Source: a virus. Taken from it: 64,000 bases of DNA. Below the pieces are notes generated by a model that saw only the letters and a program-made list of their open reading frames with translations, ran no database searches and had not been told where the DNA came from. The position numbers and the translations under genes were made by a program. The stretch spans positions 9,454-73,453 of the IMG/VR virus record IMGVR_UViG_3300032893_000030; one strand, given 5' to 3'. Shown here in pieces: positions 1,496 through 61,712 of the stretch. Each line of letters begins with the position of its first letter. Within the stretch, counting starts at the first letter, position 1.

Positions 1496-1939
1496 ATGAG
1501 CAGTTTAAATCGAGTAACACTTATTGGAAGATTAGGGAAAGATGTAGAAATCAGAACAATTGCATCAGGAGATATGGTTGCATCATTTTCCATGGCTACA
1601 TCCGAAACATGGAAGGATAAAGCAACTGGAGAAAAGAAAGAATCTACTGAATGGCACAACATTGTTGCCTGGCGCGGTCTTGCTGAGATTGCTTCCAAGT
1701 TTATGCACAAAGGCGATCTTGTCTTTATTGAAGGCAAGATGAAGACGCGTTCTTGGGAGAAAGACGGTGTGACCAGATACACCACTGAAGTCCTTGCAGA
1801 CAAAGTGATTCTGCTTGGCGGCAAACGGGAATCTTCGGCACCGCCTCCGCCAGATAGTGCGCCAGAGTCTGTGCGAAGTGCGCCGGCAAAGCAATCTCCT
1901 GCTTCAATGCAAGATGAAGTTGATTCGCTTCCTTTTTGA
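1496..1939 (+). CDS. ssb: single-stranded DNA-binding protein
   Basis: 147 aa. OB-fold SSB signature (RVTLIGRLGKDVEIR...WHNIVAWRGLAEIASKFMHKGDLVFIEGKMKTRSWEKDG). Gly/Pro-rich linker and acidic C-terminal tail DEVDSLPF (DDDIPF-like). Confidence 0.9.
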   Translation: MSSLNRVTLIGRLGKDVEIRTIASGDMVASFSMATSETWKDKATGEKKESTEWHNIVAWRGLAEIASKFMHKGDLVFIEGKMKTRSWEKDGVTRYTTEVLADKVILLGGKRESSAPPPPDSAPESVRSAPAKQSPASMQDEVDSLPF

Positions 1940-9160: not shown

Positions 9161-9212
9161 ATCAAAGCTATACAAAAGTTTTTCATATTCAAATGTTCAT
9201 TATTTTAGTGGG

Positions 9213-10315: not shown

Positions 10316-10322
10316 AACAAAA

Positions 10323-10358: not shown

Positions 10359-10427
10359 AATTACTTGCCCAAAGTGGTGAGGAGCCAAATGGACTAGGTT
10401 GAGACAAATGTAAGTAAATATTTGATT

Positions 10428-10694: not shown

Positions 10695-10891
10695 GTCATC
10701 AGTTCTCTTTATTTGGATATCAGCGGCCGCGCGCGAAAGTCCCCATAAGCGCTGAACGGATTCGGCAGATACAATCTGAGATTGAATCAGGCAAGGATAA
10801 GGACGCGCTTGATCACATGCGATTGCTTCGTGAGTCTCTGGAGAATTACGAACGCAGGATCAGAACAAAATCACTTGTTGAGGGTGAATAG
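10691..10891 (+). CDS. hypothetical protein
   Basis: 66 aa. ATGA overlap with the upstream gene. Converges on the - strand structural block. Confidence 0.35.
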   Translation: MSHQFSLFGYQRPRAKVPISAERIRQIQSEIESGKDKDALDHMRLLRESLENYERRIRTKSLVEGE

Positions 10892-11395: not shown

Positions 11396-11420
11396 AAGCG
11401 TAATTTTAGATTAAAGGTAC

Positions 11421-48783: not shown

Positions 48784-49059
48784 TCATTTGCGTGTTATGT
48801 GAAATTTTGATTCAACTCCTTCTGCTCCTTCAAGGTTGTAAATGATTAACATTTCCCTCCACAAATCAGCCTGCACTTCTTCAGGTACATTCCAAAAATC
48901 CTCTGTCGGCATCCCGCAACGATTGCAACACATAATAGAGGTTTCGCCATGCTGTTCTTCGGGCAAACAGTGGCACATTCCGCGAGGTGATTTAGGGGTT
49001 TCGATCATGGTTTTTCTTTCCTTTATAAGTTTCGTAGGCTTGCAACACATCATTTCCAA
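48784..49059 (-). CDS. small Cys-rich zinc-ribbon-like protein
   Basis: CxxC-like pairs (MCHC ... CCNRCG). Probable real start at the internal Met (MIETPK...). Confidence 0.35.
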   Translation of the reverse strand: MEMMCCKPTKLIKERKTMIETPKSPRGMCHCLPEEQHGETSIMCCNRCGMPTEDFWNVPEEVQADLWREMLIIYNLEGAEGVESKFHITRK

Positions 49060-49474
49060 TTTCCCAACTGATAACTCCCATCTGTCTGTTTGATGCTATT
49101 TTCAAGACATAATAAAATCTCTCCAACAGTTCTTCCTGCTCCTTTGCCTTTGTGGTTAAGGCGGTGAGTTTATATTCAAGGTCTTTCCTCTTGTTGAGTT
49201 CATCCATGTCCCGTTCCTGCCAACGCTCAGTCTCTCTATCAAATTTAGAGCCTAAGGCGTGGTATTCCTTCTCGCTTGTCATCAGTTGCAGCCGTAGGTT
49301 TTGATTCTCCTTCTTTAAGGATTCAAGGTCGGCGGTCAAAGAATCAATCTTTCGTGATTGAAGCGAATGATCCTCGGAGATTGTATTTGCCGCTATTATA
49401 GTCTCTGCTTTCAATCTTTTGAGTTCATCCCGTTCATTAATCAGTTGTTGGATGGTTTGTTCCTCTGTCATGGC
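48992..49474 (-). CDS. coiled-coil protein, paralogue of 61281..61709
   Basis: Shares DLESLKKENQNLRLQL and a ...QMG(V/K)(I/V)(S/N)W(E/N)... C-terminal block with the + strand gene at 61.3 kb. Start chosen at MTEEQ (49474) because the 20 nt upstream of that ATG are identical to the upstream region of the 61111 ORF. Table ORF extends to 49525. Confidence 0.5.
   Translation of the reverse strand, partial: AMTEEQTIQQLINERDELKRLKAETIIAANTISEDHSLQSRKIDSLTADLESLKKENQNLRLQLMTSEKEYHALGSKFDRETERWQERDMDELNKRKDLEYKLTALTTKAKEQEELLERFYYVLKIASNRQMGVISWEIGNDVLQAYETYKGKKNHDRNP
49284..49331. repeat. inverted DNA repeat copy A (partner 61334-61361 and 61414-61444)
   Basis: The reverse complement contains CGACCTTGAATCCTTAAAGAAGGAGAAT immediately followed by CAAAACCTACGGCTGCAACT. 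The same two blocks occur in direct orientation at 61.3-61.45 kb separated by a 52 nt insert. Confidence 0.7.
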
Positions 49475-49487
49475 GTGGGTAGGGTTA
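49464..49487. repeat. inverted repeat of gene-start region AACCCTACCCACGCCATGACAGAG (partner 61096-61119)
   Basis: 24/24 nt identity in reverse complement. Includes the ATG of both paralogous loci. Confidence 0.7.
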
Positions 49488-49745
49488 AAATTGAATTTTA
49501 GGTTGGCGATAAAGCATTTCGTCAATAGAAACTTCGAGCACTCGACAAATAGCCATTACTTCCTCAAGGGTAGGCTTGCCTCTTCCTTCTTCAATATCCG
49601 ACACTCTTTTCAACTGTCTTAATTCGGCTCTTTCAGAAAGTTCTCTTGAGGTTAGTCCCCGAAAGGCTCTTACTCTAATTATGTTTGTACGAAATAAAGT
49701 CAGGTCCGATTCTTTCATAAACAAATTTGAAATAGTTTGGAACAT
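49485..49745 (-). CDS. XRE-family helix-turn-helix transcriptional regulator (Cro/CI-like)
   Basis: 86 aa. RAFRGLTSRELSERAELRQLKRVSDIEEGRGKPTLEEVMAICRVLEVSIDEML is a canonical HTH_3 pattern. Confidence 0.7.
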   Translation of the reverse strand: MFQTISNLFMKESDLTLFRTNIIRVRAFRGLTSRELSERAELRQLKRVSDIEEGRGKPTLEEVMAICRVLEVSIDEMLYRQPKIQF

Positions 49746-49838
49746 TGTAGTTTTGTCTCTTCATCTCCTTCCAGAGAGGAAGTTCAATCGGAATTAAAAT
49801 CAAGAAGTAAAAGGGGTAGAACATTATCTTAATGATTT

Positions 49839-50084
49839 TCATTTTGTCTCCTGTTTAGTTTCTTGTTTGGTGATGGTGAAATTGTTCTTCAAATATTCAA
49901 GAACATAATCCACTTGTTCTGAAAACTCATCTTCTTTGTCCACCCCATAGTTCTCGTTCACATACTCAGTGATTCTGTAAATTAATTGTGCATTATTTTT
50001 CCAACCTGACTTAACGTCAATAATTCTTGGTTCAAATGGATGTTTCATTGTTTTCTTGTTTGGTGATGGTGGAAAGGAACTCAT
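49839..50084 (-). CDS. hypothetical early protein
   Basis: 81 aa ORF in the packed early array. The real start may be an internal Met. Confidence 0.35.
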   Translation of the reverse strand: MSSFPPSPNKKTMKHPFEPRIIDVKSGWKNNAQLIYRITEYVNENYGVDKEDEFSEQVDYVLEYLKNNFTITKQETKQETK

Positions 50085-50400
50085 TTCGGGCTTTCATTAA
50101 ATCCCAACTTTCCTTAAAGTGGAAACCGTCTGATTCTGCTAACTCCTTCCATCTTTTTATCAATTCAATCGCCTCTTTCTCCTGCTCAACGGTTAACAGG
50201 TGGCGGGACTCTTGGTCAGCGGCTCCTTTGATGTAACCATTTGTAAATCCTTGTATCGCAGCCCATTGTTGAATGAAATCGCATCCATCATCCTGGCGTA
50301 CCCAAACGCCATGATTTTTCTCAATCCAATATTCATTCGCCTTTTCCTTAGCAATTTCCTTTAACTCAATCGCTCTTTGTTCTAAAGTCTTGTCGGTCAT
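50032..50400 (-). CDS. hypothetical early protein
   Basis: 122 aa. Confidence 0.4.
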   Translation of the reverse strand: MTDKTLEQRAIELKEIAKEKANEYWIEKNHGVWVRQDDGCDFIQQWAAIQGFTNGYIKGAADQESRHLLTVEQEKEAIELIKRWKELAESDGFHFKESWDLMKARNEFLSTITKQENNETSI

Positions 50401-50816
50401 AACAGGTCAGGATTTTGATATATGTTTCCGATTACTCTTGCATGAATATCGTGCAGTTCTTCTGACAGAATTTGCTCATCTTCTCCCTCCTTTTGCGAAG
50501 TCCAGAAACCCGCATCGGAAAATCTCACAACCCCCAATTCTTTCCCCTCAGACCACAGATCAAATTCAAGGATGTCGCCCTCGTAAATGTCCAGTCCGGT
50601 TTCATCTTTGAGGCCGGTAAATTGCATGAGGATTCCAGGTGTATTCAGAATTGCGTTCGGATCGCCCGTCACAAGTCTTCTGTCCGTTCCGATTTCAAAA
50701 AGCCCCCAAGGAATGCCCTCGGAGAAAAAGGACAAATATAAATGCGAACCTTTCACCATATAGTGCATTTCTCCATCGTGGAAAACCCGAAATCTAATTT
50801 CTCTCTTGTCGGTCAT
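50397..50816 (-). CDS. YopX-family phage protein
   Basis: 139 aa. N-terminal REIRFRVFHDGEMHYMV and C-terminal GNIYQNPDLL are the YopX hallmarks. Confidence 0.65.
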   Translation of the reverse strand: MTDKREIRFRVFHDGEMHYMVKGSHLYLSFFSEGIPWGLFEIGTDRRLVTGDPNAILNTPGILMQFTGLKDETGLDIYEGDILEFDLWSEGKELGVVRFSDAGFWTSQKEGEDEQILSEELHDIHARVIGNIYQNPDLL

Positions 50817-50828
50817 TTTTGGTTGGGG

Positions 50829-51059
50829 TTAGATTCTTTGCTGCTGTTTAAATTCTTCATATAAATCACTCCATGAGTATTTCACCCAGTTTTGTTTCCC
50901 CTCAGGTAAATGTGGTTGCGTATTAAAAAACCAAAGTTTTTCGTCCCCTTCCGCGAGAAGTTCTAATTCGTGGGCCAGCATTTTCTCATGCTTCCAGATG
51001 GCAAATTGAATAGCCTCAGATTTAAGACTATTACTTGTAACGTATTTTCCTATTATCAT
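50829..51059 (-). CDS. hypothetical early protein
   Basis: 76 aa. Confidence 0.35.
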   Translation of the reverse strand: MIIGKYVTSNSLKSEAIQFAIWKHEKMLAHELELLAEGDEKLWFFNTQPHLPEGKQNWVKYSWSDLYEEFKQQQRI

Positions 51060-51442
51060 AAAACGTATTCTTTACTTGGTTCTTTAAATCCTTCTGGAAC
51101 GCCGGAACTGAGAAAGCGGATGATACGGCGGGCGGCTCCTTTGGCGGTGTTGTCGTATTTGTTCCATCTCGAAGTGAAAAGGTATTTATAGGATGGACTT
51201 CCAAAGAATATTCCAAATGCACGATCTCTGTAATGGGGAAACATTTCATAACGCCACTTTTTAATATCAGCGTATGGGCCATGTCCAACCGCGCAACCAA
51301 TAGTACCGCATGATTCGCCGTCGTTGCTATAAAAGCTCATATCAAATCCTGCCTTCAAATTCTTTTCATCCATCAGATACATTGCCAACTTATGAAGGTT
51401 GGCGATCTGTGTCTTTGTTAATCCTTTCAGATGTGATTTCAT
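51056..51442 (-). CDS. hypothetical early protein
   Basis: 128 aa. ATGA overlap. Confidence 0.4.
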   Translation of the reverse strand: MKSHLKGLTKTQIANLHKLAMYLMDEKNLKAGFDMSFYSNDGESCGTIGCAVGHGPYADIKKWRYEMFPHYRDRAFGIFFGSPSYKYLFTSRWNKYDNTAKGAARRIIRFLSSGVPEGFKEPSKEYVL

Positions 51443-51642
51443 ATCGAAATAACTTTTTCGCCCTTACGGTCTTTGCCCCGATATTTAAACCATTCACGAT
51501 CTGCACGTGCATTATCAAGATGTACTATTCGTGGACGGTCAGTACAATACAAATAATCATAACCTACTCTTGTATAAACTTCCAAATCTCCATGTTCCTC
51601 CTTGAGGTTACTGAGATGCGTGATTAGTTCTGAGACTTTCAT
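51439..51642 (-). CDS. hypothetical early protein
   Basis: 67 aa. Confidence 0.35.
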   Translation of the reverse strand: MKVSELITHLSNLKEEHGDLEVYTRVGYDYLYCTDRPRIVHLDNARADREWFKYRGKDRKGEKVISI

Positions 51643-51842
51643 TCGAGTTTCGGTTTATTTATTTCCTTCCATCGTAAACTATCATCCACGCTGATATCCT
51701 GCATGCGACCGGACTTGATCTTCCACAGCGCGTCTTCAATCTGCGCGGAGATGACAAACCACTGCTTGCGTTCCGGTGTTACCAGATCCTGCGCGCGAAC
51801 CGCTTCTTCAATGACCAGTAAAAGTTCACTGATTGTTGCCAT
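51639..51842 (-). CDS. hypothetical early protein
   Basis: 67 aa. Confidence 0.35.
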   Translation of the reverse strand: MATISELLLVIEEAVRAQDLVTPERKQWFVISAQIEDALWKIKSGRMQDISVDDSLRWKEINKPKLE

Positions 51843-51977
51843 TTAGTTGTGTGGTAAAATCCAGCGCCGATCATTCAACCAGCATACGTCATAGACGAAC
51901 TTACCATCTCTGAAGCGATACCATGTGTCGCCCTCAAGAAAGAAGTAGATTTCAGATGTTGAAGTGATGGTGATCAT
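51843..51977 (-). CDS. small hypothetical protein (44 aa, below ORF-table cutoff)
   Basis: MITITSTSEIYFFLEGDTWYRFRDGKFVYDVCWLNDRRWILPHN. Its TAA is immediately followed by the ATG of the next gene (AACTAAATGG). Confidence 0.25.
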   Translation of the reverse strand: MITITSTSEIYFFLEGDTWYRFRDGKFVYDVCWLNDRRWILPHN

Positions 51978-51986
51978 GAGTGCCGG

Positions 51987-52157
51987 TTATTTGATTATTT
52001 GTTTTACTCTTATCCACCCCAATAACAAGTCGTCTATCAGGCGTAAATATTCTTGTATAGATTCTTGATATTCTTGTGGATCAAACGACTCAAACTTTAA
52101 ACTCGGTTCTTTCACCAGCGTCTTGCAGTCAACACGGATCAGATAGCTGTCGATCAT
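51987..52157 (-). CDS. small hypothetical protein (56 aa, below ORF-table cutoff)
   Basis: MIDSYLIRVDCKTLVKEPSLKFESFDPQEYQESIQEYLRLIDDLLLGWIRVKQIIK. ATGA overlap with the upstream gene 52154..52432. Confidence 0.25.
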   Translation of the reverse strand: MIDSYLIRVDCKTLVKEPSLKFESFDPQEYQESIQEYLRLIDDLLLGWIRVKQIIK

Positions 52158-52432
52158 TGCGGATGCTCGTTTTTGAATTTATAAATCTTATCCATCAATT
52201 CATTGCACTGCGTATGAAATTTTTCCGGCATCTGCATCACTGATAGAAAGCCGGAGCCAGTGCACTTGCCGATAAGATCATACATCTCCGGCGCATACAT
52301 GACCTTCTCTAGGCCGATCAGCCGGATGGCATGCAGGGTGTTCAGGGCATCATTGATTTCCAGCGCATTCGCGGAGGAAGTCTTAGCCAATTCCTGAATG
52401 GCAGTGATCTGTTGTTGCAGAGTCGTGGTCAT
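52154..52432 (-). CDS. hypothetical early protein
   Basis: 92 aa. Confidence 0.35.
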   Translation of the reverse strand: MTTTLQQQITAIQELAKTSSANALEINDALNTLHAIRLIGLEKVMYAPEMYDLIGKCTGSGFLSVMQMPEKFHTQCNELMDKIYKFKNEHPQ

Positions 52433-52902
52433 GATTCTTTCTTTGCAAACAACTCAAACGAACTCGTTGCAGATCCGGCCTCCAACTTTCCATAACAGAA
52501 AACCCGAAGCAAGCCGCTTCGCTCCAGCGAATCAATCCCCCAGTCAATCGGTTCAACTTTCCCTGGGATCATTCCTTCATACCATTTCCCAAACCCACCG
52601 ATGCCACCAAGATGGATCACATCTGAACATCCTGACAAGCGGCATACAGGTTTGTCTTCCCTGATGGCCACAAAGTCCATGCAGCGCCAGCCACTGTCAT
52701 GCAGATGCTTGAGCGGAATAATCACAATGGCATCAATGTCCTTTTCGGCAATGTGCCAGCTTTGGCGATACGGCACAATCAAGAACTGCCAGCGATACCA
52801 CTTGGTATAATGCCTGCGCATCAATGGCGCAACAACCCAATCACGTAATGCAAAAATTAGTTTGCGGATGGCTACAATTATGGTCCTCAGTAAAGTTTTC
52901 AT
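52429..52902 (-). CDS. hypothetical early protein
   Basis: 157 aa. Trp/Arg-rich N-terminus. Confidence 0.4.
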   Translation of the reverse strand: MKTLLRTIIVAIRKLIFALRDWVVAPLMRRHYTKWYRWQFLIVPYRQSWHIAEKDIDAIVIIPLKHLHDSGWRCMDFVAIREDKPVCRLSGCSDVIHLGGIGGFGKWYEGMIPGKVEPIDWGIDSLERSGLLRVFCYGKLEAGSATSSFELFAKKES

Positions 52903-52913
52903 TTCTAATTGTT

Positions 52914-53153
52914 TTAATTCCCCGAATGTTTCGCCCAGGCATCCATCACTAAACTCTGTGCTTCCTTCTTGCAGCGGCCTTCAGGACCACCGACAATCAA
53001 CGGCATCAGCTTACCCTTCACGGTGATCATGAATAACTGATAACTCCAATGGCCCTTGCGTTCATGCTTCACAGCCAGGCGATACTTGTCAAGTTCTGCG
53101 CGGAACATTCCATCCTGGAAAGTCCACGCCAGATGCGGATAGCGCTTGTTCAT
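52914..53153 (-). CDS. hypothetical early protein
   Basis: 79 aa. Confidence 0.35.
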   Translation of the reverse strand: MNKRYPHLAWTFQDGMFRAELDKYRLAVKHERKGHWSYQLFMITVKGKLMPLIVGGPEGRCKKEAQSLVMDAWAKHSGN

Positions 53154-53344
53154 CGGTCGAAGATTGAAGACGGCTCCCCGGGCAGGCGATCTGATTCTTC
53201 TTTACCACCATTCAAGTAGTGTACGCGCTTGGCAGCGGCATCGCTTGAATCATGATCACTCTCTGGTTCCCACTCTCCATCCGGACGGTAGAATCTTACG
53301 GTCCATAATCCTGGCTCTGATTGAATGTAAACGTACATAGTCAT
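53150..53344 (-). CDS. hypothetical early protein
   Basis: 64 aa. Confidence 0.35.
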   Translation of the reverse strand: MTMYVYIQSEPGLWTVRFYRPDGEWEPESDHDSSDAAAKRVHYLNGGKEESDRLPGEPSSIFDR

Positions 53345-53508
53345 ATTAGTTTAGTGTTCCAATAAGTTGCAAATTTTTCTGCTTCTGCGTGATCGATGAA
53401 GTAATAAGACCGGTAACCACCCCACGAAACTTTGTAAATCTCATTTCCCCAATGTGCTGGGCATTTGTACAAATCAGTTTGCTTATCGTCATTGTTGTCA
53501 TTTTTCAT
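53341..53508 (-). CDS. small hypothetical protein (55 aa, below ORF-table cutoff)
   Basis: MKNDNNDDKQTDLYKCPAHWGNEIYKVSWGGYRSYYFIDHAEAEKFATYWNTKLI. ATATGA start/stop overlap with the 53150..53344 gene. Confidence 0.25.
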   Translation of the reverse strand: MKNDNNDDKQTDLYKCPAHWGNEIYKVSWGGYRSYYFIDHAEAEKFATYWNTKLI

Positions 53509-53805
53509 TTTTCAAAAATTAGTTTGTGGCTCTAGAAAGAAGTTTGTGGGCCGACAAGCGAAAAACATCCACCAAAAAATCGGCCCTTGAAATTTCAACT
53601 TCACCTGCATTCAAATTCTCTTTTTAAATAGTCTGTCAATAATTTTTTTTCCTTCCATCAGTTCATTCCCTATGCCTTGCCTTTGTCCCTTTGTCCTCAA
53701 GTTAACCCTTGGCCCGAATGCAAACGCACCCAAAGCCAAGGGAATAACCCAAACACAAATCTTTAGACCGATACGCTGTAGTTTTCCCGGTCTTGATCGT
53801 CGGTA

Positions 53806-54072
53806 TTAGCCTTTACGATCTTGTCCCTCGGTCCCTTCGTCTTCGTCTGCCTTGCTGGCAAAATGTTCCTCAATTGCCTGGTTTTGTCCTTCTTCGTATG
53901 CCTCCCATTTTTCGCCGGATTCGTCTTCGTTAAACTCCTTAGCGTAAAATTCAAAGGGAGTGAACGAACGAAAATGATCGATTGCATCAAATGCGTCATC
54001 GATTGTCGCATTGTTTTCAGCTAGTCCCTTGCCGTGTGCAAGGCCTAACTGTTTTGCTTCCTGAATTGTCAT
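53806..54072 (-). CDS. acidic hypothetical early protein
   Basis: 88 aa, strongly acidic C-terminus. Confidence 0.4.
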   Translation of the reverse strand: MTIQEAKQLGLAHGKGLAENNATIDDAFDAIDHFRSFTPFEFYAKEFNEDESGEKWEAYEEGQNQAIEEHFASKADEDEGTEGQDRKG

Positions 54073-54094
54073 AACGTTTTTAGGGGTTTAGTTT

Positions 54095-54283
54095 TCAATT
54101 TGCCTTGTAATTCAAATAGCCTTGCAGCCATTTGATCAAAACCTTTGCACTCTCTTCATTCAAGTTCATGCGGTTCGTCTTTGTGTGCTCGTCCGAAAAT
54201 TGAAAGGTCGGTTCGAATTGGCCATTGATCACGATCTTATTCATTTGATCTTGATAGTAGGTCGTTCGTTGTGTCGTCTTCAT
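54095..54283 (-). CDS. hypothetical early protein
   Basis: 62 aa. Confidence 0.35.
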   Translation of the reverse strand: MKTTQRTTYYQDQMNKIVINGQFEPTFQFSDEHTKTNRMNLNEESAKVLIKWLQGYLNYKAN

Positions 54284-54411
54284 AATTTTTGTGTTTGGTT
54301 AAGACGGGCCCACGGGCCCGTTTCGGCTATTGAAGCCTCTTCAGTTAACCTTTTGACCATCCAACAACATCCGCAAATCGATAGATCTTTATTTCTTTCG
54401 TCTTCATAGCC

Positions 54412-54789
54412 TTAGCGTTTCATTAAATAATTCGCTATCACTGCCAGCGCCGTCGGTGTTGCCAAGATCAGTAACCCTATTAACTTTTGCTTAAGCGTTA
54501 AACGCTTTGCCTTGGCCGATGTCGCAACCTGCGCGACCTTGGGCCTGTCTAAAACTTCTTGCATTGTGTTTGTGCTGATTGCCTTTGCCTCGATACTGAT
54601 TCCGTACTTTTCGGCCAATGGCTTAAGCAGTTGATTAATTTCGTTCCTGACTACGTTATAGTCGGAATTCTTTAACGCTGTGAAATCTTTAATCTTCATA
54701 AGTGTTTGTATTTCGTTCGGCCTGCTATCCTGGCTGCAGACCTTCGCCATTGATACCACTAAGGTACAACTTGTAAAATTAACATACAA
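54412..54789 (-). CDS. hypothetical protein with C-terminal TM helix
   Basis: C-terminal LIGLLILATPTALAVIANYLM. Start likely an internal Met. Confidence 0.4.
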   Translation of the reverse strand: MYVNFTSCTLVVSMAKVCSQDSRPNEIQTLMKIKDFTALKNSDYNVVRNEINQLLKPLAEKYGISIEAKAISTNTMQEVLDRPKVAQVATSAKAKRLTLKQKLIGLLILATPTALAVIANYLMKR

Positions 54790-54853
54790 TAATAATATAT
54801 AGATTATTTTAACCTGAAGGCCTGATAAAGGCCAATACTAAAAACCTGAAGCC

Positions 54854-55399
54854 TTAAACCGGTTGTGTGTTGTCCTGGACGGCCTGAACCCTGTTGCCCT
54901 TTGGTTTATAGATCCGAACATACTTAGCCGGCAATTCCTTGCGTTCACGATCCATTATTTCGCCAGCAATCCGGTCATAAAAGTCCAAAATCCGCTGCCC
55001 CTTGGCTGTTATCGCAATCGCATAGCCGTTGAAGGCCTTAACCCACTCAATACACCCCAATTCAATACATTTTTCTATTCCCGTTCGGATCCTATATTGC
55101 CAATTGCTTCGATGTCCTGACCATTTTACAACATGGTCCAACGCGGCACCCTCCTTGTTTCGGATTGCTAAAAACGTCCACGTTATCCCTAACGCTTCCA
55201 ATTCCTTGGCACCCACCCCAAACTGCGCAGCTATTGCCCTTGTTGCCTTCGCGTCAATTGCTTTATTGCCTGGATAATACTGACCGTACGTAAGCCTTTC
55301 TTTGCGGGAAACCTTCACCCCATTGCCTGGCAAGCTTTGTCCCGCGTTTGCCGCGTCCGTTTTCCCTTCAGTTGAGGTGTTTTGCCCGTTTTCCGTCAT
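54854..55399 (-). CDS. hypothetical protein (first gene of the leftward early operon)
   Basis: 181 aa. Preceded on the - strand by TTGACA...ATAATA-like promoter elements in the 55.4-55.5 kb region. Confidence 0.45.
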   Translation of the reverse strand: MTENGQNTSTEGKTDAANAGQSLPGNGVKVSRKERLTYGQYYPGNKAIDAKATRAIAAQFGVGAKELEALGITWTFLAIRNKEGAALDHVVKWSGHRSNWQYRIRTGIEKCIELGCIEWVKAFNGYAIAITAKGQRILDFYDRIAGEIMDRERKELPAKYVRIYKPKGNRVQAVQDNTQPV

Positions 55400-56004
55400 C
55401 TTGTCACGCTGTTATATAATTTGTATTATGTTAAGTAGCTTTGTATCGCGCTGATAATCAGTAATTTCTATTATGTTCAAAAAATCTTTTTCGTGTCAAA
55501 CTGGCACCCGGGCTCGTAAAAGATCGATTGCCCCAACCGAAAAGGCAGGGGGGACTTGGATACGCCTGGCCGGTGTGTGAGTTCGCGGGGATCATGGGGG
55601 TGAAGATATGGTGGAGGGTGGAGAAAGTCAACACCACTCGGATTGGGAGTGCTTGAAGGCAGGCTGGGTGAGCATAGCGTAAACATATTAGCGTAGATAT
55701 GTCACACAGTTACGGTTACGCTTTTAAGGTGGTGATTTCTACCCGTAACCAGAACCGTAACCATGCGTTTTTGACCGTTTCCTATATCTTTTATTCTTCT
55801 TTAGTTACACTTAAGAGAATAAAGAGATAAGAGTATAGATAATGGGGCTAGTATAGAGTCATAAATATATAAATGTTGAGAGTGAAAAACGCCGTAACCG
55901 TAACCATGATTTCAGGCTGATTTGAGGGTTTTTGGCGTTTTGGGCGAAATAAGCGTAACTGGAGGAAAATAAAATGTAGAAATATTTGGAAAGTATGTCT
56001 ACGT
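55400..56004. promoter_or_regulatory. divergent early control region with repeated GTAACC motifs and G-rich island
   Basis: About 600 bp without credible ORFs between diverging gene blocks. CCGTAACCGTAACCATG at 55892-55908. CGTAACCAGAACCGTAACCATG at 55744-55766. Inverted copy AGTTACGGTTACGC at 55708-55721. AAAACGCC ... GGCGTTTT inverted pair. Sigma70-like TTGACA/ATAATA on the - strand near 55.45-55.5 kb. TACGTTTG (TAnnTTTG-like) near 56000. Confidence 0.45.
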
Positions 56005-56088
56005 TTGTGTTATGTTTACATCAACAATTCAGGACAACGATTCGGGGAACAGTTAAAGACAACTCAATGGCACAATGAAGACGCAGGT

Positions 56089-56595
56089 ATGACCATACAG
56101 CATGATGATCGGATTTATTATCAGGTGTACGCGGTAGCGCGCAAGCTGTTCACTACACTTGGAGATGTGCGGACAAAGGAGATTTATGCGGAGTGTCAGG
56201 CTGCTGGGTTGCGGATTGATTACAACCGGATCACGGTGGCTGTGCGGGAGATTATGGCCGACATGGTGGCGCGCGATGAGGCTTCCAAGTCGGGATATGG
56301 TAAGTGGCGGATCAGCCATGTAGAGCGTCCCATGCCGGATGCGGGGATCATCGTTGGACGGGTCAGGGAGTTGATTGCTCCACTGTTGCGGCAGGGCGGT
56401 GTGATCCGGCCATCGAGTGCCTATGAGTTGTGCAAGGGGAAGGTGCGCTTCTGCCATGTGGTGGATGCTTTGCAGGTGATCATGCCGGCCGTGGGAGGGA
56501 AGGAACTGTCGCCCCTATGGTGGGAACTGTCGGCACCGGCCACAAGGTCAACCAGCGGGGCAGACCAGGAAGAAACAAACCAAGAGAAGATATGA
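56089..56595 (+). CDS. hypothetical protein (GC-rich island)
   Basis: Table ORF begins at TTG 56005. The first in-frame ATG at 56089 has AGGT spacing upstream. GC-rich codon usage unlike the early region. Confidence 0.4.
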   Translation: MTIQHDDRIYYQVYAVARKLFTTLGDVRTKEIYAECQAAGLRIDYNRITVAVREIMADMVARDEASKSGYGKWRISHVERPMPDAGIIVGRVRELIAPLLRQGGVIRPSSAYELCKGKVRFCHVVDALQVIMPAVGGKELSPLWWELSAPATRSTSGADQEETNQEKI

Positions 56596-57158
56596 AGCAG
56601 TGGGAGTATAAGATTGTTGACGGAGACTGTGTCTCGGTCAAAGAAATGTCCGACATAGGGGCCGAGGGATGGGAGCTTATAACGGTGTTTCAAGGAAATG
56701 AGGTTGTTTTGTACTTCAAACGCGAGATCCCGGCTGAGTCTGTTAAGGAGAAATGGTCCAAGATGTGTATGGAAGAAGCACTCGCCACGCTGTTTCCTGG
56801 CCGGACTGATGAGGAAGTGAAGGCGATCTTGGCGGGATGGAAAGAGCAGGAGAAGGCCAACGAAAGTTTCAACCGGCACTCTGAGTGGGTACAGCGAACA
56901 CGGAAGGAGGTTGAATCACAACAAGGGGGTGAACCAGAGGATGAAGATCTGATGTCCTACATCGGCACCAAGGTCGTGTGTGCAAGGCCAATGTCAGAAG
57001 ATAAGTTCAACGCCATGAAAAAGGGAGTATGGACAACAGATAGCGGCAGGCCCGGCTACCTTGTCATCTACGAAGACGGTTATAGGTCGTGGTCACCCAA
57101 GGACGTGTTCGAGCGGTGTTATCGGCTGATCACTGAGGCAGAAAAGAAATTGATATGA
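56592..57158 (+). CDS. DUF4177-like domain protein
   Basis: Start MKQWEYKIVDGD... (ATGA overlap with the previous gene). Table ORF 56430 has an implausible Gly/Arg-rich extension. Carries the MKxWEYKIV...GWELI pattern of DUF4177. Confidence 0.45.
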   Translation: MKQWEYKIVDGDCVSVKEMSDIGAEGWELITVFQGNEVVLYFKREIPAESVKEKWSKMCMEEALATLFPGRTDEEVKAILAGWKEQEKANESFNRHSEWVQRTRKEVESQQGGEPEDEDLMSYIGTKVVCARPMSEDKFNAMKKGVWTTDSGRPGYLVIYEDGYRSWSPKDVFERCYRLITEAEKKLI

Positions 57159-57352
57159 TTGAACGGGGTGATACGGTTCAATTAAAATCTGGCGGTCCTG
57201 TAATGACCGTAAAGAGGGTTGTTGCTGAAGAAAAGGAAAAATTCTTATTCTGGCAGATGATCACTCCACCCATGGTTGTGTGTACCTGGTTTGATATAAA
57301 GAACCAAACAAGAACAGAAGTTTTTCATCCTGACTTACTCAAAAAAATATGA
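57155..57352 (+). CDS. DUF2158 (YodC-like) small protein
   Basis: 65 aa. MIERGDTVQLKSGGPVMTVKRV matches the conserved GDxVxLKSGGPxMTV motif. Confidence 0.55.
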   Translation: MIERGDTVQLKSGGPVMTVKRVVAEEKEKFLFWQMITPPMVVCTWFDIKNQTRTEVFHPDLLKKI

Positions 57353-57558
57353 AGATAACCGCGCGGGCGACCGCACCCATGGATCAGGAATTTGAGATGA
57401 CCATCACGATGACGCTGGCACAGTGGCAGACGCTGGCCAATCAGATACATAAGGGCGGGGAGTGGTACTTCGGTCCTGCCGGACGATTGATTGAGGGCAT
57501 CCGTGCCATCGAATCACAGGCGACACAAAGATTCAAGGAAACTATTGAGAAGCATTGA
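57349..57558 (+). CDS. hypothetical protein
   Basis: 69 aa. ATGA overlaps at both ends. Confidence 0.4.
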   Translation: MKITARATAPMDQEFEMTITMTLAQWQTLANQIHKGGEWYFGPAGRLIEGIRAIESQATQRFKETIEKH

Positions 57559-57905
57559 TGGCGATGAATTGGCTTAACAGAATACGTTTGCGCTTCCTTG
57601 CCACCGTGGACATGATTGTCCTTGAACGTGGATACAGCTACGTGCGCATTCCGGATGGGAAGCATGCCGATGTGGTTGCCGGAATCTATCACGATGACGG
57701 ATATGAACTCTACGACATCGGCACTGTCACCTATGCGTATTGGATGCGCCGACCGGTTGATTACGTGCAGGTAGTGCATGAGTCGATCATCACGGGGCCA
57801 GTGTCCTTGTGGTACGAAGGTATTCCGCTGGAGTTGACACCGGGGCGCTGGCGGGTGCGCAGGGTTGGAAAGAGTATATCGATAACGAAAATAGCGATTG
57901 AGTAA
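57555..57905 (+). CDS. hypothetical protein
   Basis: 116 aa. Confidence 0.4.
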   Translation: MMAMNWLNRIRLRFLATVDMIVLERGYSYVRIPDGKHADVVAGIYHDDGYELYDIGTVTYAYWMRRPVDYVQVVHESIITGPVSLWYEGIPLELTPGRWRVRRVGKSISITKIAIE

Positions 57906-59829
57906 TAATGTGGATACTACCGCCAGCGATCAAAGCATCATTTCGTTCTGCACGGGGATTGGAGGACTTGAACGAGGAATTGCCCTTGGTGGGTGTCGCG
58001 TTAAGCCAGTCTGCTATGTGGAGATCGAAGCCGTCCTCTGCGAAAACATGGTTGCAGCGATGCAAGCGGGCGCGATGGATGCAGCGCCTATCTGGACGGA
58101 TCTTAAGACTTTCCCTGCACGACAGTTTCACGGACTGGTGGACGGCATCATTGGCGGCTACCCGTGTCAGCCCTTCAGTTTGGCCGGCAAGCGAAAAGGA
58201 ACTGACGATCCGCGACACCTTTGGCCGTTTATACGAACTTATGTCGCGGCAATACGACCTGTTTGGTGCTACTTCGAAAACGTCGATGACCACATCACCA
58301 TGGGATTCGATCTTGTTTACAAGGACTTATCGGCGATGGGTTACCGCGTTGAGGCTGGAATATTCTCAGCGGCAGAGGTTGGCGCGCCACATGAACGACA
58401 GCGGCTATTCATACTGGCTGTCGCCCAGGGCGAGCGAGATCCCCGAAGACTACGCGCAATATCTGGCGCGTATGCGCGCTTCGAACAACCCGAAGAACAA
58501 CACCAAGACCAAGGAAGGGAATCTATCGATGCAGGTGTACCGGCAGTGGCCGACATCGCATGCGAGTCCGCAGGAGAACCGGTCGATGGGCGAGACTCCG
58601 AGTCAGAAGCAGGGCAAACACGGGGGATATCTGGCCAGCGAGGCGGACAAGTGGACCACCCCGACATCGCACCAGCAGAACACACAGTATCAGCAGGGCG
58701 GCACTCCGCTTCAGGCGCAGGTGAACCAGAAGAAGTGGAAGACGCCGGGAGCCAGCGAGACGGAGGGCGGGGCGATGAAGGAGTTGACGGGGGACGCGAA
58801 GTACAAGCTCAGGGATCAGGTGAATTGGCCGACACCGGATACATTCGACAAGGGGAATCCGAACATAAATCAGAAGAGCAACAAAAAGAACATACCGAAG
58901 AATTTTCACGAAGCAATAAACTGGCCGACCGCGAGCGCGCGGGACTTCAAGGACACACCGGGGATGAGTATGGATCGGGACGGGAAGGAACTTGGGAGGG
59001 TAGATCAACTGGCGCGGTCGGTTTACCACCATGGCCAGCCGGACCAGGAGAACAGCAGTACGAGTGGGAATACCCACGAACTAAACCGAGGCCGATTAAA
59101 CCCAGCGTGGGTAGCACAACTTATGGGGATGAGAATTCAAACAATTTGGTTTCTGTAAATTATGTGGCCTACACCACCAATAAAACAAGGACCATTGAAG
59201 AACTGCACAGGGTGTGGCAAGCAATTGATCAGAAAGCGGTTCAAGGATGGTCGATTGGAAGATTACAGTGTTTTTTTGAGGAGGAAATTCTGCAATCGGG
59301 AGTGTTACAAAAATTTTCTCCGTTCGGGATACATTCATCCGCTGACGGCAAGAAAATATTCAAGAGAATTCAGAACGGAGGCATGCGAGATGTGCGGCAC
59401 GGACCACTTGTTGGGGATACATCACAAAGACAGGAATATTTGGAACAACTCCGAGGAGAATTTGCAGACGCTATGTGCATCCTGTCATACGAAATTACAT
59501 TGGCAAGAAGGCAAGAAAGGCCGACCAGCGATAGCAGTGAAGGCATGCAGCGTTTGTGGGATAGTCTCAAAGACGCGTGGTGGGATGTGCCAGAAACATT
59601 ATCAGCGATTCAAGCGGCATGGAAGCCCGTTTCTGAAAAAAATAATTGGCAAGAACAGATTGCAAGTGCTTATAGAAGTTACAGATTAGAATTTAACGAT
59701 GAATTCAGAGAAGATATTTTAAGAGCACTTGGAAACGCAGTAGTGCCGGCACAGGCCGCGAAGGCATGGATAGAATTATGGGAGAAATTTTTAACCAATG
59801 AAGACGCTTACAATTCGCGAAAAAGGTGA
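57898..59829 (+). CDS. DNA (cytosine-5)-methyltransferase, mosaic/disrupted (frameshift at CCCC run; HNH gene inserted in motif IX)
   Basis: Frame of 57898 (TTG, or GTG 57910) carries motif I FCTGIGG, motif IV GGYPCQPFSLAGKRKG, motif VI ENV and motif VIII GAPHERQRLFILA, up to about 58440. The +1 frame then carries six W-x-TP repeats and RLNPAWVAQLMGM (motif IX-like) until TAA 59158. Motif X (ILRALGNAVVPAQAAKAW) is back in the first frame at 59690-59829. The 643 aa ORF stays open throughout only because the out-of-frame middle is GA-rich low complexity. Confidence 0.6.
   Translation: MSNNVDTTASDQSIISFCTGIGGLERGIALGGCRVKPVCYVEIEAVLCENMVAAMQAGAMDAAPIWTDLKTFPARQFHGLVDGIIGGYPCQPFSLAGKRKGTDDPRHLWPFIRTYVAAIRPVWCYFENVDDHITMGFDLVYKDLSAMGYRVEAGIFSAAEVGAPHERQRLFILAVAQGERDPRRLRAISGAYARFEQPEEQHQDQGRESIDAGVPAVADIACESAGEPVDGRDSESEAGQTRGISGQRGGQVDHPDIAPAEHTVSAGRHSASGAGEPEEVEDAGSQRDGGRGDEGVDGGREVQAQGSGELADTGYIRQGESEHKSEEQQKEHTEEFSRSNKLADRERAGLQGHTGDEYGSGREGTWEGRSTGAVGLPPWPAGPGEQQYEWEYPRTKPRPIKPSVGSTTYGDENSNNLVSVNYVAYTTNKTRTIEELHRVWQAIDQKAVQGWSIGRLQCFFEEEILQSGVLQKFSPFGIHSSADGKKIFKRIQNGGMRDVRHGPLVGDTSQRQEYLEQLRGEFADAMCILSYEITLARRQERPTSDSSEGMQRLWDSLKDAWWDVPETLSAIQAAWKPVSEKNNWQEQIASAYRSYRLEFNDEFREDILRALGNAVVPAQAAKAWIELWEKFLTNEDAYNSRKR
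59162..59689 (+). CDS. HNH homing endonuclease inserted within the C5-methyltransferase gene
   Basis: 175 aa. CEMCGTDHLLGIHHKDRNIWNNSEENLQTLCASCHTKLH is a complete HNH motif. C-terminal CSVCG...GMCQKHYQRFKRHG zinc module typical of phage HNH enzymes. GC content drops sharply at about 59100 relative to the flanking methyltransferase sequence. Confidence 0.8.
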   Translation: MWPTPPIKQGPLKNCTGCGKQLIRKRFKDGRLEDYSVFLRRKFCNRECYKNFLRSGYIHPLTARKYSREFRTEACEMCGTDHLLGIHHKDRNIWNNSEENLQTLCASCHTKLHWQEGKKGRPAIAVKACSVCGIVSKTRGGMCQKHYQRFKRHGSPFLKKIIGKNRLQVLIEVTD

Positions 59830-60124
59830 CCGTGTATTCTTCCTTGATTCCGAGGGATTCAAGGAGGGGTATGTGCATAGTGTGATCATGACTAGTGACA
59901 GCCAGGTCGAGTACAGGGTAAAGGTCAAAGATGATGCCGCTGTCTACGGAGGATATCCTAGGCTTCCAGATCAACTCTGGGATTCGGCTGAAGAGATGGT
60001 GTGGCACTATGCGAAGAAGATTGGGGTTCTGAAAGAGCATCTCAAACTCAAAGAAATCAAGGAACTTCTTACCCGTCTTGAAGCGACAATCAAAAGATAT
60101 CATGAAGCATCTACCCCTATCTAG
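59798..60124 (+). CDS. hypothetical protein
   Basis: 108 aa. Overlaps the methyltransferase 3' end by 32 nt. Confidence 0.4.
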   Translation: MKTLTIREKGDRVFFLDSEGFKEGYVHSVIMTSDSQVEYRVKVKDDAAVYGGYPRLPDQLWDSAEEMVWHYAKKIGVLKEHLKLKEIKELLTRLEATIKRYHEASTPI

Positions 60125-60275
60125 TGATATGACTGAAGAAGACTACGGAGAAGAGAACTACGAGCAAGAGGCGATGAATACTGGAATCTCTGCGCTGTTT
60201 TGGATCATGCTCGGTTGCGCATTGCTTGGGGCACTGGCATGGATGTGCGGTCAGATAATGGCTACGAAGATATGA
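60078..60275 (+). CDS. small membrane protein
   Basis: 65 aa. Acidic N-terminus, then one TM helix (ISALFWIMLGCALLGALAWMCGQIM). Confidence 0.35.
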   Translation: MKRQSKDIMKHLPLSSDMTEEDYGEENYEQEAMNTGISALFWIMLGCALLGALAWMCGQIMATKI

Positions 60276-60661
60276 GTGCGCACAGCTACACGGAAGGAAG
60301 TGAGGAGACGATGGGTATCACGGCATCAGGGCCGCTGAAGAAGGGAATCTTTTCTTTTAAGAAAGGCGACCACATTGATCACTTCTTTGATAAGGTTGGC
60401 CCAATGTGGTTTGATCTGTGGGACGATAAAGATGATCGGATAAACTGCGACTTTGAGATACAAGTTATCGTGAACCGCCGTGAAGAGAAAAAGATCACTC
60501 CGCAGAAAGTTGAACCGATAGTCAAAAAGCCGGTGACTTCAGAAGAAGCATGCGGCATCTGCTCAGGAACCGGTTACCGGTCAGCACTTGATGGCGGAGA
60601 TGGACGTAAGAAGTGCCTGGTGTGTAATGGGACGGGAAGAAAACGGGCGTTTAAACAGTAA
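60272..60661 (+). CDS. small protein with DnaJ-type CxxCxGxG zinc-finger repeats
   Basis: Start MSAHSYTEG (ATGA overlap; table ORF 60200). C-terminal CGICSGTGYRS...CLVCNGTGRK has two CxxCxGxG units, as in the DnaJ central domain. Confidence 0.45.
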   Translation: MSAHSYTEGSEETMGITASGPLKKGIFSFKKGDHIDHFFDKVGPMWFDLWDDKDDRINCDFEIQVIVNRREEKKITPQKVEPIVKKPVTSEEACGICSGTGYRSALDGGDGRKKCLVCNGTGRKRAFKQ

Positions 60662-60667
60662 GCGGAT

Positions 60668-60844
60668 ATGGGTATCAAGACTGAGAAAGCCTACATCGTG
60701 GTTTGCGACAAATGCGGAGATGGATTGGAGTTTGATGCGGAATATACTCCGGTGTTCTTCGACAGGGACGAGGCTAAACAGATAGCCATTGATTCCGACT
60801 GGGTATTTGTTGGAAGGAAATGTTTTTGTCCAGATTGCAAATAA
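60668..60844 (+). CDS. small zinc-ribbon-like protein (58 aa, below ORF-table cutoff)
   Basis: MGIKTEKAYIVVCDKCGDGLEFDAE...GRKCFCPDCK. CxxC...CxxC pairs. Confidence 0.3.
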   Translation: MGIKTEKAYIVVCDKCGDGLEFDAEYTPVFFDRDEAKQIAIDSDWVFVGRKCFCPDCK

Positions 60845-60864
60845 GAAACTAAACAGGAGACAAA

Positions 60865-61029
60865 ATGAAAAGGGATGATGGTTATTATTGGGTAAAATCA
60901 AAAGAAAATAATTGGTGGATTATCGCTTATTGGTCACTTGAAATGAATTGCTTTTACGTGGATGGATTCTATACGCCTGAAGGTGACTTTCTCGAAATCA
61001 ACGAAACTAAACTTGAAGAACCAAAGTGA
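60865..61029 (+). CDS. small hypothetical protein (54 aa)
   Basis: Preceded by AGGAGA 5 nt upstream of the ATG. MKRDDGYYWVKSKENNWWIIAYWSLEMNCFYVDGFYTPEGDFLEINETKLEEPK. Confidence 0.35.
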   Translation: MKRDDGYYWVKSKENNWWIIAYWSLEMNCFYVDGFYTPEGDFLEINETKLEEPK

Positions 61030-61110
61030 AAACGAAATACTCACAAGCGGGTTGTATTAATTGTCCGCCCGCAAAACCTTACGAAATTATCAGATAACCC
61101 TACCCACGCC

Positions 61111-61284
61111 ATGACAGAGAAAGAAAAAATAGAATTGCCAAAATACAAATCAGTAGAGCAACAAATGCAGGATATCATTTATCATTTTGCGTCTGCCAGT
61201 GTCAACGGACTTCCTGCAATCCCGGAAAAGCATTTCAAAGATTTAGGAACAATGATTTTGAATAAATTAAGGATAAGCAAGTGA
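61111..61284 (+). CDS. small hypothetical protein (57 aa) sharing its start region with the 49 kb paralogue
   Basis: ATG preceded by AACCCTACCCACGCC, identical to the sequence upstream of the MTEEQ start of the - strand gene at 49474. GTGA overlap with the next gene. Confidence 0.35.
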   Translation: MTEKEKIELPKYKSVEQQMQDIIYHFASASVNGLPAIPEKHFKDLGTMILNKLRISK

Positions 61285-61709
61285 AACTGGATGAAGAGAA
61301 ACATGAGGCACCTGAAAATGGTCCTCCTACTGACGACCTTGAATCCTTAAAGAAGGAGAATGAGAATTGGAAACAAATTGCGAAGGACATTGAACACGCG
61401 AATCATGGATTAGAGAAGGAGAATCAAAACCTACGGCTGCAACTAGAAACAGCGGATAAGTGGAAGGACCAAAGATTGGAGTTGCAAAAAGAATACGATT
61501 CTAAAGTACAGTCGCATGAAAATCCAGACTGGCGTGAAGGATATTTTGATGGACTCAGAAGTTCATTGATCCAGCTTGAAATGATGGATGAAAAACTTTC
61601 TGTGTCGCGCGCGATCATTAAGGAATTGCTACGTGCGCGTGACACCCAAATGGGTAAAGTCAATTGGAATGTTTTAAATGCACTTCTGTCAGCACATGAA
61701 GAATTGTAA
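61281..61709 (+). CDS. coiled-coil protein, paralogue of 48992..49474
   Basis: GTG start. DDLESLKKENENW...LEKENQNLRLQLE and a C-terminal MGKVNWNVLNALLSAHE block shared with the 49 kb gene. Confidence 0.5.
   Translation: MKLDEEKHEAPENGPPTDDLESLKKENENWKQIAKDIEHANHGLEKENQNLRLQLETADKWKDQRLELQKEYDSKVQSHENPDWREGYFDGLRSSLIQLEMMDEKLSVSRAIIKELLRARDTQMGKVNWNVLNALLSAHEEL
61334..61444. repeat. inverted repeat copy B (two blocks 61334-61361 and 61414-61444 matching 49284-49331)
   Basis: 28 nt and 31 nt exact matches to the reverse complement of the 49.3 kb copy. Separated here by a 52 nt insert that duplicates GAGAAGGAGAAT. Confidence 0.7.
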
Positions 61710-61712
61710 ATA

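Follow-up and report, generated by a model that had tools for sequence, protein, structure and literature searches.

What does it mean that a phage genome carries the same short stretches of DNA at both ends of its early region, in opposite orientation and partly in front of unrelated genes? The question arises from a 64,000-nucleotide stretch of the IMG/VR virus record IMGVR_UViG_3300032893_000030 (positions 9,454 to 73,453 of that record), called the window in the following, which comprises most of the genome of an uncultured phage of about 73.4 kb that was assembled independently in several metagenomes. Two genes encoding coiled-coil proteins, L159 on the - strand (left arm) and R142 on the + strand (right arm), share blocks of nearly identical sequence. 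The original prediction took these repeats for relics of a duplication or for substrates of a homologous inversion of the whole early segment, and the conserved start motif for a possible promoter or ribosome-binding element. With moderate confidence we favour another explanation, namely that a cassette of accessory genes has been shuffled and that the blocks are its joints or linkers, at which recombination took place by short homology; an inversion switch or a promoter is not favoured.

Inverted blocks in the two arms of the early region

Repeat finding and two blastn self-comparisons of the window defined four inverted blocks, A to D, which are 32-38 nt long, 89-97% identical and join 49.28-49.87 kb (-) to 60.84-61.44 kb (+) (Table 1). 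The self-alignment, which had been proposed as a check, thereby upheld the predicted matches, and no self-match with E<0.01 besides these blocks was found by blastn across the whole window. The 24-mer AACCCTACCCACGCCATGACAGAG, described before as a start-region block common to both genes, occurs exactly twice (49463-49486 on the - strand and 61096-61119 on the + strand) and had 0 matches in 100 shuffles of the window; the internal blocks of 28 nt and 31 nt were recovered as the exact cores of C and D. The orientation of the repeats is inverted as predicted, and the distance between the copies is about 11.6 kb instead of 11.7 kb. All four blocks are colinear in both arms, where block A lies 878 and 872 nt from the respective stop codon. 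Blocks B to D sit in the coiled-coil paralogs, and the copies of block A lie at the starts of unrelated small genes further upstream, one in each arm. Neither block A nor the recurrence of blocks before unrelated genes in another phage contig was part of the original prediction. Because blocks are found in another contig and before unrelated genes, the reading shifts from arms of an inversion to joints of a mosaic.

As judged from their sequences, L159 and R142 are true paralogs, in agreement with the earlier view: the proteins share 33% identity over 105 aa (E=3e-8) and the zipper ..LKKENQNLRLQL.., a family profile retrieves both of them, and the C-terminal motif QMG.V.W..N..L.A.E is present in L159, in R142 and in the related protein P0002. 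The left gene had been placed at 48992..49474; the gene itself was confirmed and its start corrected, the ATG being at 49471. The split of the right locus into a 57-aa peptide (R57) and a GTG-started protein was reproduced. R57 consists of the start region of the coiled-coil gene, i.e., block B and Met-Thr-Glu, on an unrelated body and matched no Pfam or PHROG family. R142 has an AAGGA 7 nt 5' of its GTG and is linked to R57 by a GTGA overlap. A split pseudogene composed of R57 and R142 is disfavoured by this separate Shine-Dalgarno sequence and GTG, by the coupling overlap and by the intact conserved C-terminus.

Overall, the left and right copies are identical at a fraction of 0.50 of their nucleotides, and the identity is strongly clustered: exact runs measure 48 and 25 nt and all others at most 6 nt, a distribution that was matched in 0 of 20000 permutations of the alignment columns. 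The 48-nt run corresponds to blocks C and D (encoding DLESLKKEN and KENQNLRLQL, respectively) joined across a gap of 63 nt. The exact cores of 28 nt and 31 nt have 11 nt in common in the left gene, where C and D are fused, and are 52 nt apart in the right gene; the right gene is thus 63 nt (21 codons) longer, in frame. The previously described duplicated insert of 52 nt is correct as the spacing of the exact blocks in the right gene, and the true amount of extra sequence is 63 nt. Removal of the 63 nt that separate two copies of AAGGAGAAT would turn the right C and D into the fused C/D of the left gene. A duplication of the same AAGGAGAAT type with a period of 84 nt is carried by L014, the relative introduced below. 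This pattern suggests unequal recombination at the short AAGGAGAAT repeats.

Protein constraint and nucleotide identity could be separated by a codon comparison. The blocks encode the zipper core ESLKKENQNLRLQL, and ten consecutive codons of the zipper block (block D) are identical in the genes for L159, R142 and P0002, CTA and CGG included. The C-terminal motif is likewise kept as protein in all three, and its synonymous codons differ throughout. The distant relative P0013 encodes the K-E-N and L residues of the zipper by other codons. Since the zipper codons are identical but the C-terminal codons have diverged, protein constraint alone fails to explain the blocks, and an account based on it was rejected. 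The blocks are therefore either of recent common ancestry or selected as nucleotide sequence.

Blocks A and B represent translation-start junctions, as far as can be read from the DNA. In the left arm block B (TAACCCTACCCACGCC-ATG-ACAGAG) comprises the stop codon of the gene for a helix-turn-helix (HTH) regulator, a spacer of 13 nt and the start of L159, and in the right arm it forms the start of R57. This TAA-13 nt-ATG junction has no Shine-Dalgarno sequence. It closes the upstream open reading frame (ORF) in the left arm and in L014, and its TAA in the right arm is the stop codon of a putative micro-ORF of 23 aa. If this micro-ORF is real, an unbroken chain of translationally coupled ORFs extends from 60865 to 62255. 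Block A, in the left arm AAGAAACTAAACAGGAGACAAA-ATG-AAAA, is the 3' half of a longer linker and contains AGGAGA 5 nt before the ATG. It precedes three unrelated genes: L55 in the left arm, R54 in the right arm and a 91-aa gene of L014. In the left arm it also codes for the C-terminus of the upstream gene; it is intergenic in the right arm and in L014. The two copies of the 5' half of the linker listed in Table 1 are direct repeats around the 81/68-aa gene of the left arm, and partial copies of the linker TTCACCATCACCAAACAAGAAACTAAACAGGAGACAAAATGAAAA flank this 81-aa gene and, at the same position in L014, a different gene of 101 aa. Five copies of linker A and three to four of block B are known. 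In a survey of all start regions such sharing was limited to this gene cluster, with a background of longest common substrings of 4-10 nt.

Two further observations concern gene starts in the vicinity. The gene for a YopX-domain protein and the adjacent 122-aa gene open with the same 13 nt ATGACCGACAAGA (MTDK; - strand starts at 50816 and 50400, respectively). At 54258-54302 and 54382-54426 there is a direct repeat of 45 nt with 71% identity; on the - strand, the start region of a 62-aa gene (TTAA..ATGAAGACGA) is duplicated within the 128 nt spacer upstream of that gene. Here, too, the start of a gene may once have been duplicated.

The sole close relative of the locus is the contig L014 (JGI, 6.8 kb), which equals L004 from ENA with 100% identity over 6341 nt and encodes the 55% identical protein P0002. 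The backbone of L014 has a guanine-cytosine (GC) content of 63-72% and is phage-like, with a DNA-polymerase-type exonuclease (phrog_192). It is interrupted by an island of 1.4 kb (L014 1862-3290, corresponding to L004 1782-3210) with 43-46% GC and four small genes, which has its left junction 16 nt ahead of an ATG and its right junction six codons ahead of a stop. The island aligns to the left arm only, as a patchwork of blocks of 24-60 nt with 92-100% identity, among them blocks C and D together, and the DNA between the blocks is unalignable and differs in length. The same pattern is seen within one gene: the 122-aa gene of the window and the 97-aa gene of L014 agree in three blocks at start, middle and end, and the DNA between them cannot be aligned. 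L014 is nearer to the left arm (100% in the blocks) than the right arm is (94-97%). Either genes have passed between phages that differ widely in base composition, or the island is a chimera shared by both assemblies. A third contig, L020, contains some of the same small genes in another order: an R54-like gene adjoins the coiled-coil gene of P0005 and is followed by a 102-aa gene, then by a remnant of 28 nt from the end of the 91-aa gene of L014, fused to the first 7 nt of block B, and then by an L55-like ORF.

Close members of the coiled-coil family are limited to three proteins, L159, R142 and P0002, within an index of 5.8 billion proteins and in an exhaustive HMMER search of 1.84 billion representatives; about two distant ones are P0013, with a P0002-like N-terminus, and P0005, with the C-terminal motif. 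L159 matched no Pfam or PHROG family above threshold and gave only sub-threshold matches to generic coiled coils; the family is an orphan. The AlphaFold2 model of L159 predicts a single long helix of residues 3-128 and a helix of residues 136-150 with a predicted local distance difference test (pLDDT) score of 86. Among 50,697 phage records there was no match to 48-63 kb (megablast) or to L159 (tblastn). Exact searches with the blocks had no result in IMG/VR and in the GTDB genomes and returned L014 only from the JGI metagenomes, a collection that is incomplete for such a search, as the window phage's own JGI contig was not returned. A search of IMG/VR with the family profile retrieved no confirmed relative. 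The relatives in IMG/VR by TerL, L008-L013 with 55-60% amino-acid identity, are without coiled-coil gene and blocks and are uninformative here. One of them, L009 (IMGVR_UViG_3300020036_003211), contains a terminase-like gene in two inverted copies (2321-4471 and 9879-12029), which probably are a palindromic assembly artefact.

Table 1. Blocks, genes and shared segments of the locus, with the predicted recombination genes of the phage (positions refer to the window unless a contig is named)
Feature	Position	Strand	Length	Identity	Remarks
Block A	49836-49869 / 60838-60871	- / +	34 nt	97%	exact core 29 nt
Block B	49456-49487 / 61095-61126	- / +	32 nt	94%	exact core 25 nt
Block C	49299-49336 / 61329-61366	- / +	38 nt	89%	exact core 28 nt
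Block D	49284-49318 / 61410-61444	- / +	35 nt	97%	exact core 31 nt
L159, left coiled-coil paralog	48992..49471	-	159 aa		ORF, called gene in public assemblies
R142, right coiled-coil paralog	61281..61709	+	142 aa		GTG start; called gene
R57	61111..61284	+	57 aa		ORF, called gene in ENA and JGI; exact protein in collection of 15 billion
R54	60865..61029	+	54 aa		preceded by block A
Micro-ORF candidate	61026..61097	+	23 aa		MKTKYSQAGCINCPPAKPYEIIR; GTG start, GTGA overlap with 54-aa gene; sequence reading only
L55	49675..49842	-	55 aa		preceded by block A
HTH_3 (Cro/CI-type) regulator	49485..49745	-			PF01381, E=1.6e-7; PHROG transcriptional repressor/regulator families
81/68-aa gene	49839..50047		81/68 aa		between direct repeats of linker 5' half
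Linker 5' half (TTCACCATCACCAAACAAGAAAC)	49858..49880	-			downstream of 81/68-aa gene
Linker 5' half, second copy	50051..50073	-	23 nt	96%	at 3' end of 122-aa gene
122-aa gene	50032..50400	-	122 aa	92-96%	start, middle and end blocks of 52, 60 and 38 nt, compared with 97-aa gene of L014
L014 vs left arm, linker 5' half			27 nt	100%
L014 vs left arm, block A	L014 2481-2513		33 nt	100%
L014 vs left arm, block B	L014 2779-2810		32 nt	100%
L014 vs left arm, block C			27 nt	100%
L014 vs left arm, block encoding LTALTTKAKEQEELLE			50 nt	100%
PDDEXK-type exonuclease (DUF3799)	249..947	+			PF12684, E=2.9e-8
SSB	1496..1939				PF00436, E=3.6e-33
RecT	L005 20138+				just outside the window; PF03837

Origin of the blocks

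The arrangement could have come about as follows. The early regions of the phage and its few relatives would harbour a common stock of small accessory genes, with the orphan leucine-zipper family among them, and these genes as well as coiled-coil segments would be exchanged, inserted, deleted and partly rewritten via recombination at short shared sequences. The shared joints would mainly be made up of a stop codon, a spacer or Shine-Dalgarno sequence, the ATG and the first two to three codons, together with a few in-frame zipper-coding stretches. Since such a joint holds all of these signals, an incoming gene body would inherit a working start. R57 may serve as an example, where block B with Met-Thr-Glu would have been placed on an unrelated body and the coiled-coil ORF would now be translationally coupled behind it. 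The likely engine would be the RecT, PDDEXK exonuclease and SSB of the phage. With one copy of the cassette in each of the divergent operons, the joints would appear as inverted repeats 11.6 kb apart, and we are therefore inclined to regard the inverted repeats as a by-product and not as a device.

From the blocks and their clustering, their recurrence at unrelated genes, the direct repeats, the synonymous divergence and the presence of the recombination genes we infer that recombination at the blocks is the origin of the pattern and that RecT catalysed it. Several points weigh against this. Only three copies of the blocks exist across all collections searched, so that recent ancestry by recombination is inseparable from purifying selection that acts on the nucleotides themselves. 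Neither intermediates of recombination nor polymorphic arrangements were seen. Even for recombinases of the annealing type, homologies of 24-35 nt are short, and RecT, a plausible catalyst of the block exchange, has an activity that is only predicted. Moreover, the low-GC island in the high-GC contig L014 could be a chimeric assembly; this doubt is countered by the agreement of the JGI and ENA assemblies and by ORFs that are intact across both junctions of the island.

If the blocks are joints, the locus offers a clean small example of the shuffling of phage accessory genes in which swapped genes inherit their expression signals, and the same joints would have served repeatedly, in each of the divergent early operons as well as in an unrelated phage backbone of high GC content. 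This bears on the debate whether phage mosaicism results from illegitimate recombination followed by selection or from homologous exchange at short linkers, and concrete junction sequences are now available for polymerase chain reaction or read mapping. A further step, which we regard as possible yet doubtful, would be that the stop-spacer-ATG junctions (A, B and the 5' half of the linker) are dedicated portable linkers, with a RecT-type annealase moving single small genes between operons and phages. In that case transfer would work even between phages as different as 44% and 68% GC, and each incoming gene would receive a working, unstructured translation start. The linkers would then be a promoter-less counterpart, at the level of translation, of the cassettes known from phage T4 (see below), and occasional recombination of opposite copies would flip the 11.6 kb segment with neither operon broken.

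The main rival is that the blocks are functional as nucleotide sequence, be it as a shared translational operator, as an unstructured initiation region independent of Shine-Dalgarno sequences, or as a DNA site for co-regulation. We consider this unlikely, in spite of several features that fit. Blocks A and B lie exactly on translation starts and are unstructured as RNA, block A is kept whether it is coding or intergenic with regard to the upstream gene, the identity persists across three contexts, and an HTH regulator is encoded beside block B in the left arm. As to a promoter, the copies of blocks A and B have no sigma-70-like site in common and the counts of promoter-like sites in the region equal those of shuffles, so that the proposed shared promoter was not borne out; the -10 hexamer of a single 9/12 match near block A falls into coding DNA that is not shared. 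The assumption of a ribosome-binding element held in part: both blocks are translation-initiation regions and A contains the AGGAGA, but B is without Shine-Dalgarno sequence. An RNA element was rejected, since no Rfam family and no tRNA matched and the folding energies of all six block contexts, 0 to -3.6 kcal/mol (z-scores between -0.5 and +1.7), were no better than those of shuffles. Also, the upstream half of block B is not conserved before the distant P0013 and P0005, and the genes downstream of block A are unrelated. Finally, C and D lie within coding sequence and other blocks with 100% identity (the 50 nt block and those of the 122-aa gene) are common only to the left arm and L014, which indicates that the pattern tracks the relatedness of segments and not one motif.

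A rather improbable alternative is ongoing gene conversion between the arms of one genome, in which an old inverted duplication would be homogenised in short patches with no exchange between phages. Both copies do reside in one replicating genome encoding RecT, and colinear blocks in segments of nearly equal length (878 and 872 nt) agree with it. However, L014 carries every block on another contig and backbone and matches the left arm better than the right arm does; it already resembles a single-cassette relative with identical blocks. In addition, the genes between A and B are unrelated in the two arms, the HTH_3 gene being present in the left arm only, and this requires replacement, not conversion.

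The proposal that the 11.6 kb early segment is inverted by homologous recombination at the blocks, with both isomers in the population, appears highly unlikely. The repeats are inverted, the four blocks are colinear in both arms, a crossover at C or D would yield in-frame hybrid genes, and the phage encodes RecT and an exonuclease. Relative to transcription, blocks A to D agree in order and frame between the arms, so that both operons would stay co-oriented after an inversion. The early module that reads into the packaging genes would be swapped for the one that reads into the Band_7 and lysis genes. The contigs of four assemblies (ENA ERZ27256510, ERZ27256600 and ERZ27256505; JGI 3300032829) are, however, 100% identical and colinear across both sites. 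The four predicted chimeric proteins, in six spellings, were absent from 15 billion proteins, among which R142 and R57 were present. Both negatives are weak because consensus assemblies hide minor isomers and a crossover at A or B leaves the proteins unchanged. For block B the predicted inversion junctions are ...ACGAAATTATCAGA-TAACCCTACCCACGCCATGACAGAG-GAACAAACCATCC... and ...AAAATTCAATTT-TAACCCTACCCACGCCATGACAGAG-AAAGAAAAAATAG..., and one predicted hybrid junction is CAAAACCTTACGAAATTATCAGA+TAACCCTACCCACGCCATGACAGAG+GAACAAACCATCC. No invertase, resolvase or integrase was found in the precomputed Pfam annotation of the called genes at 38992-64000 and 7.7 kb beyond, or in Pfam scans of the ORFs in 249-11395 and of selected ORFs of both arms. 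Apart from this, the homology measures merely 24-35 nt, and the blocks are single-copy and in one orientation in L014, so that a role in inversion is not needed to account for them. Homologous inversion, as put forward in the original prediction, thus found no support, on evidence that is negative and weak.

A plain ancient duplication, in which the blocks would simply mark where constraint on the protein and on the ribosome-binding sites is strongest, fits the zipper core that they encode and its resemblance to leucine zippers (HALZ below threshold, T7 gp5.9 with E=1.4e-3) but is hardly credible in view of synonymous sites that are identical in the blocks and diverged in the equally conserved C-terminal motif, of block A before unrelated proteins and of the permutation test.

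Genomic setting of the locus

Tail, head, portal and terminase-size genes occupy the - strand from 11.4 to 47.9 kb, followed by small genes up to 55.4 kb, and the + strand genes begin at 56.0 kb. L159 is located 1.1 kb upstream of a 730-aa terminase-like gene and after the HTH_3 regulator; on the right, a Band_7/SPFH gene comes next after R142. The repeats had been described as exactly flanking the early segment, which is true in a loose sense: small - strand genes run on to 48.2 kb, and + strand genes extend beyond 64 kb.

RecT, the PDDEXK exonuclease and SSB (Table 1) together represent a phage recombination module, according to their predicted domains; an HNH endonuclease is encoded alongside the latter two at 0.25-1.9 kb. 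Downstream, on the + strand, a GroEL-type chaperonin (2609-4207; PF00118, E=4e-61) and a GroES-like protein (4204-4596) are encoded, and a second protein with a C-terminal Cpn10 domain follows at 9111-9941 (+). A cluster of genes for glycosyltransferases (GT2, GT9-like, DUF5672) and S-adenosylmethionine-dependent methyltransferases at 4935-8744 (-) may serve the modification of the host surface or the virion.

Within the GC island at 56-60 kb, an ORF of 643 aa (57898-59829, +) has N-terminal motifs of C5-cytosine methyltransferases (PF00145, residues 14-222), a long middle part of low complexity and a GNAVVP motif at its C-terminus. ORFs at 57908-59158 and 59162-59689 overlap it in other frames, one of them with repeated WPTP/WPTS motifs and the other HNH-like with 175 aa (PF01844, E=6e-4, under the Pfam cutoff). 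These overlaps could be nested or overlapping genes, or read-through in GC-rich DNA (GC 0.51 vs 0.42-0.45 around).

Comparison with known systems

In the invertible segments of phages Mu (G) and P1 (C) and of the Hin/Gin/Cin type, a serine invertase is encoded next to the segment, an enhancer is present, and any lysate contains both orientations. Like them, the locus features inverted repeats of about 26-34 bp that bracket a phage segment of several kb. It differs from them in that no recombinase was found among the annotated genes and scanned ORFs named above, one orientation was seen in the consensus contigs and the repeats are four blocks inside or near paralogous genes; an invertible segment of the Gin/Hin type is disfavoured for the first two of these reasons. 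A target of a diversity-generating retroelement was rejected as well, as the variable segments differ in length and are unalignable, and the annotations contain no match to a reverse transcriptase.

For the coiled-coil protein itself, the RecBCD inhibitor gp5.9 of phage T7 is a possible counterpart. Residues 38-73 of L159 (..ESLKKENQNLRLQLMT.D..) align to the dimerisation coiled coil of gp5.9 (PDB 8b1r chain P) over 36 aa with E=1.4e-3, a borderline match such as coiled coils may yield through their composition. Like the proteins of the family, gp5.9 is an early phage protein; it has 52 aa, compared with 142-164 aa and an extra C-terminal motif here. The family could have an anti-RecBCD role, or the match could reflect mere coiled-coil composition, and we take it as a lead only.

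Closer parallels exist for the proposed recombination joints. Proteins of the Red/RecT type recombine short and diverged sequences and make patchy hybrids, and the mosaicism of phages has been proposed to be driven by them (PMC2327257, PMC3945230); the boundary-sequence model of lambdoid mosaics is cited in PMC2327257. The locus resembles the lambdoid linkers in the proposed exchange of modules by homologous recombination at short conserved flanks, in patchy hybrid genes and in a phage-encoded Rad52-like annealase. In contrast to them, the same joints are found twice in one genome in opposite orientation, and the exchanged units, deduced here from sequence comparison, are single small genes or parts of one gene.

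Functionally, the closest known system appears to be the promoter-early stem-loop (PeSL) cassettes of T4-type phages (Arbiol et al. 2010, PMC2839356; Comeau et al. 2014, PMC4122927). PeSLs are conserved motifs that extend from a stop codon to a Shine-Dalgarno sequence and start, flank differential ORFans and mediate modular shuffling (PMC2839356). In both cases a short motif reaches from the stop codon of one gene to the Shine-Dalgarno sequence or start of the next small ORFan, the motifs are concentrated among small ORFan early genes, their copies flank genes that differ between related phages (here two genomes only), and recombination between copies would account for insertion, deletion and replacement. 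The differences are also clear. PeSLs measure about 100 bp and include a sigma-70 promoter and a stem-loop terminator, whereas the joints described here comprise 25-45 nt, with no promoter match and no stem-loop. Some of the joints are intragenic, and the phage is not T4-like. About 50 PeSLs occur per genome, compared with five copies of linker A and three to four of block B here, and mini-circles are a feature of the PeSLs, the window locus being known from its sequence alone. Seen against these systems, the locus is no new kind of system and represents a further example of the known mosaicism of phage genomes, in an orphan gene family.

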